64,000 nucleotides of DNA from Escherichia phage P479. The stretch lies in sequence record MW269952.1. One strand, written 5' to 3'. Shown piece by piece: positions 42,639 through 48,193 of the stretch (positions are counted from its first letter, which is position 1; each line of letters begins with the position of its first letter). Both the position numbers and the translations under genes were made by a program. The notes beneath the pieces were generated by a model that worked only from the letters and a program-made list of their open reading frames with translations, was not told the origin of the DNA and searched no databases.

Positions 42639-44331
42639 TAGAACTCATTGTTGACATTGTTTCGGACCAATTGCCAGCCACGGTCATATCAACGTTTCCA
42701 TTAACGGACCATTTGACATTACCATTTACCGTATAATCATGGTTACCTTCGACAAGAGTTTTTGCGTCACCTTTAACAGTTATTTCAGCATTACCTTCGA
42801 CCAGAATACTTACATTACCTTTGACAATAATTGTACCGTCACCTTCAATGGTTTTGGTTTCATTCCCACGAATATGAATGCTTTCGTTTCCATCGGTCTG
42901 ACGACGAACGTTAGCCATATTGTAATAGGTTTCATCACCACCAACGTTGACTTTATTATTACCACCAACATAAGTACTCGAATCACCCTGGGTCATATAA
43001 TAACCATCAGCTACAGTCTTCGAAGTCTTACGACCATCCGGTGCAACTTCCTCGTAGGAACCGGTCGGGTGAATCAGTCGATAACGTTCTTGTCCAGGGG
43101 TGTTATCGAATTCCTGAACATGTCCGCCTTCAGTTTGCATTGTCTGCACATAAGGATATTCGCCCTTGTAACTGGATTCTGGCTCTTTAAATAGAATCCT
43201 CGTATCTTCTGGAGTCCACGGGTCGGCTGGGTCAGAATTTGTAGGGGCTGCAAAGGTTTGAATCATCCTATATGAACGTCCTTTAAATGACATTTCTTTA
43301 GGGGCCATAATACCATATGATTCCATGTTACCTGTGAGGATAATCATTGATACCCTTGATGCACGGCCTTTAGTTTGGTTAAACCATACAGAATCACGAG
43401 CGGCATCAAATGCTTTCTTATAATCTCCGGCTAACATTGCAGCGAGCATCGTTTTAAATTTAGCAAGCCCACTCAATCCCATTTGGAAAGCCATGTTTTC
43501 AAGAGCCATTTGTCTCGAACGGTTTTCTTTATTGTAAACTGGACCCACAACACTATGCCGGCCTATATCGTTTTGTACTTTTTTAAGGTCTTCTTGGAAT
43601 AATTTAGAGGCCTCGTCCATTGATATTGCACCAGGGTTACCTTTAACTTCACGACCTATTTGATTAGATAATATTTTGTTTATCTGATTCATATCTCTAA
43701 TAGGTTGTGGTGCAATTAAGTGTCCTATACCTATAGTAGGATAACCTTCGGTGTCCCAATATACTTTCAAACGAAGACCTTCATCACGGTGAAGCATATT
43801 TTCAATTGTGAAATTAGGATTATCATCTGGCTTAACTTGACTCAAATCAAGGCCATCGGGGTTAATACCAAGGTCAAGGTTTGCATCCTGAATTACGTTC
43901 GAAGTTGCATCATAACCGACCTCACCGCCTCGGTTGAGCGCAGCAGCATCATTACCTACATAAAGTGGATATTGTCCTGTTGGGTCAGAGAATCCTTCGT
44001 TGGGATTTGCTTTTTGTCTTGAGGCTGAACCATATGTACCAATAACAAGCCCGTTGAGTTTCCACTTGTCTAAAAAGTGACCATATACTTGAGTCCCTGG
44101 CACCATACCGGTCATTGCAGTTTGAATACCAGAAACTGATGCAGATGATGTTGGCATCAATACAGACATCCATGGCAGGTCTTCAGTTCTGATACCTTTT
44201 ACAGGCCCTTGCGATTTCTCATATGGATGCATACCCCATACACGAACACGAACACGACCTTGTTGAAGTGGGTCCATTCGGTCTTCGACAACACCGACGA
44301 ACCAACTTACATTATCTGACATATTAATCAT
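42589..44331 (-). CDS. 5: baseplate central spike / cell-puncturing protein gp5 with lysozyme domain
   Basis: 580 aa (T4 gp5 575 aa); internal T4-lysozyme-like segment LRLKVYWDTEGYPTIGIGHLI; C-terminal beta-helix repeats. Confidence 0.92.
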   Translation of the reverse strand: MINMSDNVSWFVGVVEDRMDPLQQGRVRVRVWGMHPYEKSQGPVKGIRTEDLPWMSVLMPTSSASVSGIQTAMTGMVPGTQVYGHFLDKWKLNGLVIGTYGSASRQKANPNEGFSDPTGQYPLYVGNDAAALNRGGEVGYDATSNVIQDANLDLGINPDGLDLSQVKPDDNPNFTIENMLHRDEGLRLKVYWDTEGYPTIGIGHLIAPQPIRDMNQINKILSNQIGREVKGNPGAISMDEASKLFQEDLKKVQNDIGRHSVVGPVYNKENRSRQMALENMAFQMGLSGLAKFKTMLAAMLAGDYKKAFDAARDSVWFNQTKGRASRVSMIILTGNMESYGIMAPKEMSFKGRSYRMIQTFAAPTNSDPADPWTPEDTRILFKEPESSYKGEYPYVQTMQTEGGHVQEFDNTPGQERYRLIHPTGSYEEVAPDGRKTSKTVADGYYMTQGDSSTYVGGNNKVNVGGDETYYNMANVRRQTDGNESIHIRGNETKTIEGDGTIIVKGNVSILVEGNAEITVKGDAKTLVEGNHDYTVNGNVKWSVNGNVDMTVAGNWSETMSTMSSIASGQYTIDGSRIDIG

Positions 44332-44963
44332 AATGCCTTCCTCTGTTTTAAAATATTTTTAACTATGGAAATATTATGCTCACATATATTTCGATTGAAT
44401 TGGTAAAAATCAAATCCTAACTTTTTAATATGTCGAGACACATAACGGGTTTCAACCGACGTTGGTATAAACCCCATGTTCTTAGTTATTGTCTGCTCAT
44501 TTTCAAAATGCTTTTTAAGCTTATCAGAAAGAATCTTCTTTTTCTCTTCTGAACATTTTTTGCCATAATTTGGTGCATTTACTCCATGCTGGTCTCGCTT
44601 TTTTCCATACATGGGATTATTTTTACCTGAGTTATTTGCACTCATAATATCTTTAGTTTTCTGGCTATGTTTTCGACCTTTAAAGTTATCATGTTTTAAA
44701 AATCCACCGGAGCCGCCTGGTTTTAAATTGTATGAGTTTTCATTAAGAACAACAAGTTCCTTTTCAAGTTCATACATTTCTTGTTTGGAATCAACAAATT
44801 TTAATATTTCTTTTTTGAAATTTTCAATGCCATATTTTAGTATGGCACGTTTAATTAATTTACCTGAGCCCATATATCCATCATCCATATTTGATGTACT
44901 ATGCGCCCCGATATAAAATTTGCCGTTAATATTATTGGTTATTTTATATACATAATAAAACAT
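44328..44963 (-). CDS. GIY-YIG homing endonuclease (seg-like), copy 1
   Basis: N-terminal YVYKITNNINGKFYIGAHST (GIY-YIG), central NUMOD-like KxSxxxKxKMS repeats; inserted between genes 53 and 5. Confidence 0.85.
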   Translation of the reverse strand: MFYYVYKITNNINGKFYIGAHSTSNMDDGYMGSGKLIKRAILKYGIENFKKEILKFVDSKQEMYELEKELVVLNENSYNLKPGGSGGFLKHDNFKGRKHSQKTKDIMSANNSGKNNPMYGKKRDQHGVNAPNYGKKCSEEKKKILSDKLKKHFENEQTITKNMGFIPTSVETRYVSRHIKKLGFDFYQFNRNICEHNISIVKNILKQRKAL

Positions 44964-45565
44964 TAGAGTGCCTTTTCCATTTCACGGATTAATGCCGAAA
45001 TAAATGATTCGATATCATTAGGGTCGATTATCTTTATTTCTCGTTTATATTCATTTTTACGAATAGCATCTTCATAGATATCTACTGCAGCTAATGGACC
45101 TTCATATTGTGGGTACAATTTATTCTTATCACCTTTATCATACCAGGTGTACGGATTATCAGGATAAGAAACAAGATTCCAGAATTTTTCACCATCTTCA
45201 TTTACATGATAAAGAACCTGATTACCACCTATATTCGAATAGCGTTGAATTGATGCCTGATACGATGATTCTTGTGAACATATCCAACCATAATACGGGT
45301 CATAGATATCATTAAGCATAAGGAGAACCCAATAGAGTTGAGTATTACCATAGAGCTGATATGCAAGTTCTTCAGGTCTTGGAGCTCCAGCGATGTAATA
45401 TGTTTTCGGTGTATAATTAACCGCAACCTTATCAAAATAGGCGCGATAGTTTCTGAAGATGTCAGTCATTGGGATGCTTAAGACGTCTTCTTTCGTTAAT
45501 GATGCCGAGTTTTTTCTGATTGTTTTAGCATCATAATCAATTGGGTTAAAAAATGAAAAAAGCAT
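44963..45565 (-). CDS. 53: baseplate wedge subunit gp53
   Basis: Collinear with T4 gp53 from MLFSFFNPIDY; start at internal ATG 45565. Confidence 0.85.
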   Translation of the reverse strand: MLFSFFNPIDYDAKTIRKNSASLTKEDVLSIPMTDIFRNYRAYFDKVAVNYTPKTYYIAGAPRPEELAYQLYGNTQLYWVLLMLNDIYDPYYGWICSQESSYQASIQRYSNIGGNQVLYHVNEDGEKFWNLVSYPDNPYTWYDKGDKNKLYPQYEGPLAAVDIYEDAIRKNEYKREIKIIDPNDIESFISALIREMEKAL

Positions 45566-46713: not shown

Positions 46714-47537
46714 GTATTTTTACATTTATCAATGAATCTGCAGATAAACCAGGTCCGAAACCCAGTAAATCAGAACAACAATGGGTTGAAATAGGGGTTG
46801 AATTTTATACAGCAAAAGAAAAGGGAATGACCTCGAAGAAGTTTGCTGAAGAGAAAGGAATCAACTATTCGACCTTTACCAAAAGCATGTCAAGATATCA
46901 TTCGAGAATTCAGACTGCTTATAAAGTATCCAAGCTCAAAAAGAAACCTGCCGGTAAACTTACGAAGGCTGAACGTCAGCTGATAATGGTGAATAGCTTT
47001 AGAAAGAGCATAAGAGATAAGATTGCTAACGAAGGCGCTGCAAGCAACACCAAATCTGCCAGATGGTTCGCTGAGACAATTAAGAAATCAGTTCGTGGTC
47101 ACGTAACGGCTAAACCTCAACCGGGTAAGATTTATGCTTATATCTATGATGCAAAGCATAAGGATACTCTTCCGTACTGGGATAAATATCCGTTAATCAT
47201 TTATCTTGGGCTAGGTAAGCACAATTTGATGTATGGTTTGAACTTGCACTATATTCCACCGAAGGCACGTCAAGAGTTCCTTGAGGAACTTCTTAAGCAA
47301 TATGCTAATACTCCTACGATTACGAACAAGACTCATCTGAAGATTGATTGGTCAAAGGTGAAGGGATTTAAAGGGGCTGACCAGATGATTAAAGCATATA
47401 TACCTGGCAATATAAAAGGTACTATTACTGAAATCAAGCCCAGCGACTGGGCAAACGTTGTATTACTCCCCCTTCAGCAGTTTTTTTCAAAAGGCAAAAG
47501 ATTTTCTTCACAGAAAGTATGGAGAAATTCACTTTGA
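46710..47537 (+). CDS. 2: DNA end protector protein gp2
   Basis: About 275 aa from ATG 46710 (T4 gp2 274 aa), GAGGAAAGGA upstream; order 4-2-3. Confidence 0.8.
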
Positions 47538-48193
47538 ATTATCAGTTTATATATTCATCGTTAATTGAAAGGGCCCGTAACAGGGCCCTGATTTCATATA
47601 AAGAATCTCATCACATCATTCCGAAATGTATGGGCGGTTCAAATGCTCCGGATAACCTAGTCGATTTGACTCCCGAAGAACATTATGTAGCCCATCAACT
47701 ATTGGTTAAAATATATCCTACAAATCCAGGTTTAAGTTTTGCTGCCACATCTATGAGCCAGTCAAGCAAGTATTTGAAACGCAATAATAAATTATTTGGC
47801 TGGTTAAGACGCAGACACGCTGACAATATTTCTAAAAGCCAAACCGGTAAAGTTTACTTTAATAATGGTGTCAAATCGATAAAACTATTTCCATGGGAAG
47901 ATGTTCCGGATGGGTTTGTCAAAGGAAGACATTACAGTCCAACCAAGGGTACAAAACATTCTCGCAATAATGGACATTTTAAAAATAAAGAGATTCAGGA
48001 TGAATTGAGAAAGCGCCGGTGGGAAAAAGATAGGCAAGAAATGTGTAAAAACTTCGGAGTTGATACCATCGAGCAAGCTCGAGAGTTGGTCCTAGCATAT
48101 AAAAAGGAATTGCATCCTCGATACTGGGTAAAGCCAATGTTGGAACGTTATCCGTTTATGACTAAGCTAAGACTTAACACATTAATAAAATAA
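47519..48193 (+). CDS. HNH homing endonuclease (freestanding, mob-like), copy 2
   Basis: Motif [30 protein letters not shown] paralogous to the 8389-9174 HNH; inserted between genes 2 and 3. Confidence 0.85.

Follow-up and report, generated by a model that had tools for sequence, protein, structure and literature searches.

Freestanding homing endonucleases are a textbook trait of T-even phages. SegB of T4 is a proven site-specific endonuclease that brings about preferential inheritance of its region (PMC2330249), and the homing of SegF, SegG and MobE (Edgell et al., 2010, PMC2988022) serves as the model for the enzymes considered here. These are encoded in a 64,000-nucleotide (nt) stretch of Escherichia phage P479 (MW269952.1), which we refer to as the window and whose first letter is position 1 of all coordinates given below. 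Its region 44328-48193 holds two Seg-type GIY-YIG genes, one at the 53/5 junction (GIY#1) and one at the 4/2 junction (GIY#2), together with one Mob-type HNH gene at the 2/3 junction. Judging from the DNA and its relatives, we consider it highly probable that these are three intact, independently acquired freestanding homing endonuclease genes, inserted with precision, one each, at the 3' ends of three essential late genes (53, 4 and 2). We further infer that the enzymes would cleave particular target positions, home and cause marker exclusion.

By megablast the window groups with the VR7/SP18 phages of the genus Gaprivervirus, with a top match of 95.7% at the locus and of 98.5%, to TH41, in a control region. 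The T4 reference record gives the order 57B-57A-1-3-2-4 / 53-5 with the junctions empty, which bears out the compact arrangement 3-2-4 / 53-5 without inserts that an earlier note on this DNA had claimed for T4. The nearest endonuclease gene in that record is segC, beyond gene 5.1.

The three genes and their junctions

The ORF (open reading frame) list and the PHROG and Pfam matches agree with the earlier note in placing endonuclease ORFs at 44328-44963 (minus strand), 46066-46713 (plus strand) and, counted from the upstream ATG, 47519-48193 (plus strand). The GIY#1 protein (211 residues) matches Pfam GIY-YIG at 24.3 bits (cut-off 22.6) as well as SegE_GIY-YIG, NUMOD3 and PHROG 314 “homing endonuclease” (5e-49). 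The GIY#2 protein (215 residues) matches PHROG 314 at 2e-53 and scores 21.1 bits against Pfam GIY-YIG, just under the 22.6 cut-off, and 24.2 bits against NUMOD3, above the Pfam cut-off of 20.4; the NUMOD3 E-values of the two proteins are 1e-12 and 3e-5, respectively. An I-TevI-like alpha/beta catalytic fold supports the Seg-type GIY-YIG assignment. In GIY#1 the catalytic domain (residues 1-90) is followed by a NUMOD3 linker and a unique helical C-terminus, the model of which is of low confidence in that part, and GIY#2 ends in a CPHCG...KRWHGDNCK zinc finger that is conserved in four genera.

The catalytic residues were assessed by aligning the two GIY-YIG proteins with I-TevI, T4 SegC and 34 homologues from the databases. 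Since PDB sequence searches with GIY#1 and with the HNH protein gave no significant match, I-TevI was added separately, its sequence validated against 1MK0/1LN0. Residues Y6, Y17, G19, E67 and N79 (GIY#1 numbering) are present in both window proteins; across the 37-38 homologues, I-TevI and T4 SegC included, Tyr6, Tyr17, Gly19 and Asn79 are invariant and Glu67 is nearly so. GIY#1 and GIY#2 also have the subfamily motif H.T..DDxYMGSGK in common.

The third protein matches PHROG 655 “homing endonuclease” at 4e-56. It hit no Pfam family at E<=0.01, and against NCBIfam it gave only a 1e-3 local match, to the HNH region of IscB. As no curated HNH domain model matched, the HNH assignment rests on the sequence motif and the PHROG match. 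This motif aligns with the HNH motif of McrA. Its residues H31, H32, N46, H55 and H59 (counting from the ATG at 47519) do not vary in sets of 28 and of 42 homologues, and the protein also retains the other invariant columns of its family. The AF2 (AlphaFold2) model has a pLDDT (predicted local distance difference test) of 90, and its top Foldseek matches, although weak, are all HNH domains.

It is also important to consider whether these genes are degenerate, which the earlier note had named as a finding that would undo its claim. The ratio of non-synonymous to synonymous substitution rates (dN/dS) is 0.077 for GIY#1 between diverged alleles (0.10 in the C-terminal region) and 0.126 for the HNH gene, and GIY#2 differs from its PSD2001 counterpart by 21 synonymous and no non-synonymous changes (dN/dS 0/0.18). 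With the catalytic residues intact and dN/dS at 0-0.13 across the three genes, far below 1, the ORFs are best regarded as functional rather than as relics, and all three are under purifying selection.

The anatomy of the inserts is likewise precise. Measured against the endonuclease-free relative UPEC01, they amount to 635 bp for GIY#1, 650 bp for GIY#2 and 659 bp for the HNH gene. Pfam and PHROG matches identify the neighbouring genes as those for gp5, gp53, gp4, gp2, gp3 and gp1. On the minus strand, the stop of gene 53 (baseplate wedge, 44963-45565; Pfam Phage_gp53, 7e-74) overlaps the start of GIY#1 as TAATG, and the stop of GIY#1 overlaps the ATG of gene 5 (baseplate hub and tail lysozyme, 42589-44331; Pfam Gp5_OB, 3e-60; PHROG 430) as ATGA. 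On the plus strand the same two overlaps, read directly from the sequence, join gene 4 (head completion, 45614-46066) to GIY#2 and GIY#2 to gene 2 (DNA end protector, 46710-47537; PHROG 429, 1e-78). From the latter ATGA overlap it follows that gene 2 begins at ATG 46710 and not at TTG 46692, the mechanical assignment.

For the HNH gene the start is most likely TTG 47534 (219 residues, 47534-48193) rather than ATG 47519 (224 residues). TTG 47534 overlaps the stop of gene 2 as TTGA and has a GGAG 9 nt upstream; the aligned homologues, except two close relatives, begin MNYxKIY at the equivalent position, and the annotators of VR25 and VR7 chose the same start. The statement of the earlier note that all three genes are wedged in by overlapping start and stop codons thus holds for five of the six junctions, the exception being the HNH 3' end, where the native 2/3 spacer of 85 nt comes after the stop at 48193 and there is no overlap with gene 3.

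The 3' ends of the inserts show how little the host genes have changed. The final codons of GIY#1, ..GGAAGGCATTATGA (44328-44345), resemble the ancestral terminus of gene 53, ..GAGAAGTCATTATGA, and those of GIY#2, ..GAGGAAAGGATGA (46698-46713), resemble the ancestral terminus of gene 4, ..GGATGGAAAGGATGA; by this mimicry the Shine-Dalgarno sequence and the ATGA coupling to genes 5 and 2 are retained. The HNH insert (47531-47537 / 48188-48193) splits gene 2 exactly between the ancestral ...AATTCA and TAATCT..., so that gene 2 is one codon longer and ends on a new stop, its old stop codon now terminating the HNH gene. Since the GIY-YIG 3' ends restore the ancestral junctions and the HNH gene reuses the gene 2 stop, the host genes are altered by at most one residue. 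The amino acid (aa) identity to UPEC01 is 98.5% for gp53 and 99.3% for gp2. In phage RZ, a different endonuclease at the 4/2 junction (PHROG 681) ends in GWKG and likewise mimics the ancestral gp4 terminus.

That the genes are freestanding, as the earlier note had it, agrees with their being separate ORFs between host genes, with no Rfam intron match. A group I intron-encoded endonuclease was considered and ruled out: no Rfam match was returned at E<=1 across 43500-49000, the host genes are uninterrupted, and the TIGR01453 scores of GIY#1 and GIY#2 (52.5 and 42.9) fall under the cut-off of 56.05.

The relation of the two GIY-YIG proteins to each other is where our analysis departs from the earlier note, which had described near-identical N-termini and a duplication followed by retargeting. 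The N-termini are similar, at 62% identity over the first 61 residues, which falls short of near-identity; beyond these residues nothing can be aligned, and the pairwise comparison and alignment agree that the C-terminal regions differ. The shared N-terminal domain, the unrelated C-termini and the NUMOD3 in both proteins would be compatible with paralogues that arose by duplication within the phage lineage and then swapped a DNA-binding domain. However, each of the two catalytic domains is 58% identical to that of T4 SegB, about as close as they are to each other, and GIY#2 ranks only 34th of 37 in similarity to the GIY#1 catalytic domain, behind metagenomic proteins at 72-79%. Full-length relatives of GIY#2 (53-66% aa identity, zinc finger kept) occupy the 4/2 junction in Mosigvirus p000v, Karamvirus RZH and the Acinetobacter phage KARL-1 (Lazarusvirus), relatives of GIY#1 occupy the 53/5 junction in Dhakavirus, and sister phages have one GIY-YIG gene without the other. 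Duplication is therefore barely credible, and because each gene belongs to a junction-specific lineage of its own in other genera, we regard the two as independent acquisitions. At E<=1e-5 the GIY-YIG family numbers more than 1600 proteins with a wide variety of C-terminal modules, and module shuffling appears to be a property of this family, not an event in the P479 genome.

The distribution of the genes among relatives is sporadic. About 15 of the 27 distinct Gapriverviruses compared are empty of all three in this region; GIY#1 is confined to PSD2001 and P896 (apart from three Dhakaviruses), GIY#2 to PSD2001 and P8, and the HNH gene occurs in six (VR7, VR25, UPEC07, TH22, TH55 and fPSFA). 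The comparison of junctions with relatives thus gives no sign that the insertions are ancient genes fixed at identical positions in all of them, the other outcome that the earlier note had said would count against it, and no database phage, the 27 Gapriverviruses included, has all three. The HNH lineage has a wider range at the 2/3 junction, being present in Gaprivervirus, Tequatrovirus, Karamvirus, Winklervirus, Dhakavirus, Kanagawavirus and the unclassified phage Ursula; its carriers outside Gaprivervirus are RB32, KaAlpha, Ursula, Gravdalen, X20, QL01 and Kosakonia phage 305.

Other endonuclease genes use the same stretch. An unrelated one (PHROG 681) lies at the 4/2 junction in RZ, DK-13 and fPSFA, as deduced for the last two from insert size and annotation, and in UPEC07 genes 53 and 4 are separated by a further Mob-type HNH gene. 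In total, Gapriverviruses carry at least five different endonuclease genes at four junctions in a span of 5 kb, and in T4 segC lies just past gene 5.1, so the description of this region as a hotspot is well founded. The UPEC07 Mob-type HNH protein (L004:3002-3709) has a C-terminal CxHCG...KRWHG(D/E)NCK finger as in GIY#2, which makes for one DNA-binding module on two nuclease heads, both adjoining gene 4. Elsewhere in the window, a further Mob-type HNH ORF of 261 residues (8389-9174, minus strand; PHROG 655, 1e-45) overlaps the end of a 512-residue helicase-like ORF (9171-10709).

Foreign DNA next to the endonuclease genes

A sign of recent movement is found at GIY#1. Its DNA is 99.5% identical to the copy in the Dhakavirus KIT01, compared with 72-86% for the flanks, and the two genomes have no mismatches over about 650 bp that include the last 35 bp of gene 53, compared with 8-22 mismatches per 50 bp in the flanks. 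The allele of another Dhakavirus, IME540, is only 83% identical. GIY#1 was recently exchanged between two genera, Gaprivervirus and Dhakavirus. Its G+C content of 0.30-0.32 differs from that of its surroundings (about 0.36-0.45), and in the alignment four substitutions at the 3' tip of gene 53 (44967-44984) distinguish endonuclease-bearing from endonuclease-free genomes. In the Dhakavirus-like phage vB_EcoM_FB (MT682711.1, 76737-77370) the GIY#1 homologue aligns in two pieces and the database protein has 170 residues, which suggests a disrupted and decaying copy.

The gene upstream of GIY#2 also stands out from its neighbours. Gene 4 has 72% nucleotide and 77% aa identity to endonuclease-free Gapriverviruses, compared with 96-99% for genes 53 and 2. 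Against UPEC01 it shows 10-21 mismatches per 50 bp throughout, on a background of 0-2, and its synonymous sites are saturated; the intergenic promoter region just upstream is 100% identical to UPEC01. Of 1077 records only 6 have the allele (at >=89%), and each of these has an additional gene between genes 4 and 2. Because the allele is found only beside an extra 4/2 gene and matches no sampled gp4, the endonuclease gene and the foreign gene 4 appear to have entered as a block from an unsampled lineage. In phage RZ, the PHROG 681 endonuclease at the 4/2 junction (L005:3432-4160), which is cysteine-rich and unrelated to GIY#2, is associated with a gene 4 of the same foreign lineage. The gp4 protein itself matches Pfam Tn7_TnsA-like_N, a domain of endonuclease-type fold, at 1e-21.

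At the HNH gene the footprint is recurrent. Within the last 70 bp of gene 2 there is a patch of about 45 bp (47462-47510, plus strand), identified by allele alignment, in which the alleles differ at 12-14 positions, mostly synonymously, where the background is 0-2 per 50 bp, and among Gapriverviruses the haplotype of this patch follows the presence of the HNH gene. The same codons are recoded in RB32, which has the HNH gene, relative to T4 (9 mismatches; background 0-3), and in QL01, which also has it, relative to KIT01, so that the pattern is seen in three genera. The haplotype “VVMLPLQQFM” is found only in HNH-less genomes. The patch is a candidate recognition or cleavage region of the HNH enzyme in HNH-less alleles.

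These observations are what would be left by homing. In a mixed infection each enzyme would cut or nick the empty allele of a relative in or near the adjacent host gene, by analogy with SegB, SegF, SegG and MobE, and recombinational repair would then copy the endonuclease gene with its donor flanks into the recipient. The carrier genome would be shielded by differences in its target sequence, and blocks of flanking haplotype would be the expected residue of the repair.

Four points weigh against this interpretation. First, the detailed alignment covers only 9-11 genomes, which are phylogenetically non-independent. Second, no donor of the gene 4 allele was found among the 1077 phage records or among the gp4 proteins of other phages with a 4/2 endonuclease. 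Third, GIY#1 and GIY#2 have no residue that can be aligned with Arg27 of I-TevI, the motif H.T..DDxYMGSGK taking the place of that region. SegC and the biochemically active SegB of T4 have this layout too, so the absence is probably a trait of the subfamily and not a lesion. Fourth, RZ and IME540 are without the HNH gene yet carry HNH-associated haplotypes in the last 100 nt of gene 2, which makes the association imperfect. Resistant empty sites or precise loss of the HNH gene are candidate explanations of these two genomes, and unrelated mosaicism would also be compatible with them.

Mosaicism of this kind is central to another reading, in which the three genes are inactive, immobile relics and the gene 4 allele and gene 2 patch are ordinary T4-type mosaicism. 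T4-related genomes are generally mosaic, with much of the mosaicism unlinked to endonuclease genes (Petrov et al., 2010, PMC2993671), and the gene 2 haplotypes of RZ and IME540 also speak for such a reading. We nevertheless find it very improbable, as the ORFs and invariant residues are intact with dN/dS far below 1 and two genera share GIY#1 at 99.5-100% identity. The gene 4 allele is seen exclusively where a 4/2 endonuclease gene is present, and the gene 2 patch involves the same codons in each of three independent genus pairs.

Transcription, translation and RNA structure

A motif scan found a T4-type late promoter motif, TATAAATA, at 45578-45585 (plus strand), upstream of gene 4. It is the sole perfect copy in the region, and the window as a whole has 19 compared with 5.25 expected. 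Since no perfect late-promoter motif adjoins any of the three endonuclease genes, these would ride on the late transcripts of their host genes, and the promoter at 45578-45585 would be expected to drive gene 4, GIY#2, gene 2 and the HNH gene in that order. Sigma-70-type promoters were not enriched in the scan (20 compared with 17.2 expected). Translation of the endonuclease genes is probably coupled to that of the upstream gene through the TAATG and TTGA overlaps, with Shine-Dalgarno sequences that range from weak to good.

Hairpins that sequester the ribosome-binding site (RBS) are known for I-TevI and segB. One has also been described for mobE (PMC2988022). Folding of the GIY#1 and GIY#2 starts does not support such structures there (z-scores of +0.57 and +0.24). 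The HNH gene presents a different picture, with a G+C-rich hairpin of 7 bp inside the coding region (47570-47589, plus strand), 36 nt after the start, at -17.1 kcal/mol and a z-score of -3.8. The hairpin is kept in 10 of 10 members of the lineage, from the six named genera and the one unclassified phage listed above, with paired substitutions at synonymous third codon positions that preserve the stem (G:C / U:A / C:G at one pair and C:G / U:A at another). Pairing is preserved in 96.8% of cells compared with 11-57% when partners are slid, covariation is 0.317 compared with 0.159 in shuffles (0 of 500 reach 0.317), and RNAalifold returns the same stem. As a feature of the whole family the hairpin was rejected, with a mean of 3.1 of 7 pairs in 66 IMG/VR homologues, equal to the shifted controls.

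By analogy with the control of T4 endonuclease genes through RNA structure (PMC2988022), the most likely reading of the hairpin is as a brake on HNH expression. We advance only tentatively, as a possibility, that it is an undescribed cis-regulatory brake or attenuator that would work from downstream of the start and not by sequestering the RBS and, separately, that endonuclease-driven co-conversion swapped the whole of gene 4 for an allele of an unsampled, far more distant lineage.

A second hairpin, long and native, occupies the 2/3 spacer (48202-48255, plus strand; -28.9 kcal/mol, z-score -4.7) and is followed by UUGUUUU. The spacer is 95-100% identical in HNH-less relatives, and the HNH gene was inserted upstream of it. 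This hairpin is probably a terminator or a stabiliser of the gene 4-2 late transcript. Beyond it lies gene 3 (tail completion and sheath stabiliser, 48279-48878, plus strand; PHROG 45 and Pfam gp19-like), which starts at ATG 48279 as in the annotation of relatives and is 600 nt long in every relative compared.

The manner of expression bears on whom these genes serve. They might be kept chiefly for the benefit of the phage, through exclusion of competitors or through recombination and amplification functions as reported for SegB. The strong purifying selection extends over whole ORFs, DNA-binding regions included (dN/dS 0-0.13), expression is embedded in late structural operons, and the Mob lineage at the 2/3 junction has stayed at one site in six named genera and one unclassified phage with a conserved, regulatory-looking hairpin. 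SegB has been reported to help in immune evasion (PMC13096335). Yet most close relatives thrive without the genes, their distribution is sporadic and not clade-wide, one copy is disrupted in phage FB, and purifying selection is equally expected of active homing elements. A chief role in phage benefit is thus unlikely, and it would in any case be compatible with homing, which we continue to regard as the better account of the three genes.

Comparison with described endonucleases

The kind of gene described here is already known. Genes 97-100% identical at the protein level are annotated in public genomes as homing or mobile endonucleases, with GenBank labels of MobB-like mobile endonuclease (VR7, VR25 and RB32) and Seg-like or homing endonuclease (IME540, P8 and PSD2001). 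What is new is the combination of all three in one phage, the transfer between Gaprivervirus and Dhakavirus, the replacement of gene 4 in linkage with an endonuclease gene, the recurrence of the gene 2 patch and the hairpin. The literature search returned general reviews and the SegB and MobE papers, and nothing on these three loci. Petrov et al. (2010, PMC2993671) reported no convincing evidence of intron-borne endonuclease elements moving between genome types.

A 4-kb stretch of essential virion genes thereby becomes a natural case study of three invasions, an inter-genus transfer, the replacement of a core gene and a recurring candidate target patch, and it offers concrete substrates on which the targets of the 53/5, 4/2 and 2/3 lineages can be mapped. 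If true, the gene 4 case would show homing endonucleases in nature moving core genes from one phage “species” into another. The covarying hairpin within the HNH coding region adds a modest new clue to the restraint of Mob-type genes. For the design of phage cocktails, such elements matter in that they would bias recombination when related therapeutic phages co-infect.

Set beside T4 SegB, the two GIY-YIG proteins share, along with the 58% identity of the catalytic domain, the layout YxYxITN...YIG.H.T...DDxYMGSGK...E...YN..GGxGG. The genes are alike in having a NUMOD3 linker, in lying between conserved genes and in being absent from close relatives. They differ in location, as segB lies in a tRNA cluster and the GIY-YIG genes at the 53/5 and 4/2 junctions, and the SegB C-terminus is unrelated both to the CxHC...H..C zinc finger of GIY#2 and to the helical tail of GIY#1. 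Because these C-terminal DNA-binding regions are unrelated, the targets of GIY#1 and GIY#2 must differ from that of SegB. I-TevI of the td intron is more distant, since the GIY-YIG genes are not intron-encoded, have no alignable Arg27 helix and score below the TIGR01453 cut-off.

The HNH protein has the N-terminal HHIIPK..GG....N.V.LT.EEH..AH of the T4 Mob family (MobB-like, of which MobE is characterised), of RB32 ORF146c and of VR7 ORF161c, and like the Mob genes it is freestanding and sporadic. In the VR7, VR25 and RB32 records the gene at the same 2/3 site is already annotated as a MobB-like mobile endonuclease. According to the RB32 record the site is “not conserved from T4 position,” and the window lineage has a C-terminal domain of its own. 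Its hairpin is intragenic, whereas that of mobE instead sequesters the RBS (PMC2988022). In crosses, homing is accompanied by co-conversion; here flanking DNA, namely all of gene 4 and 35 bp of gene 53, is carried along with the neighbouring endonuclease gene and is seen as a population-genomic footprint, in which the imported gene 4 allele (77% aa identity) is unusually divergent.

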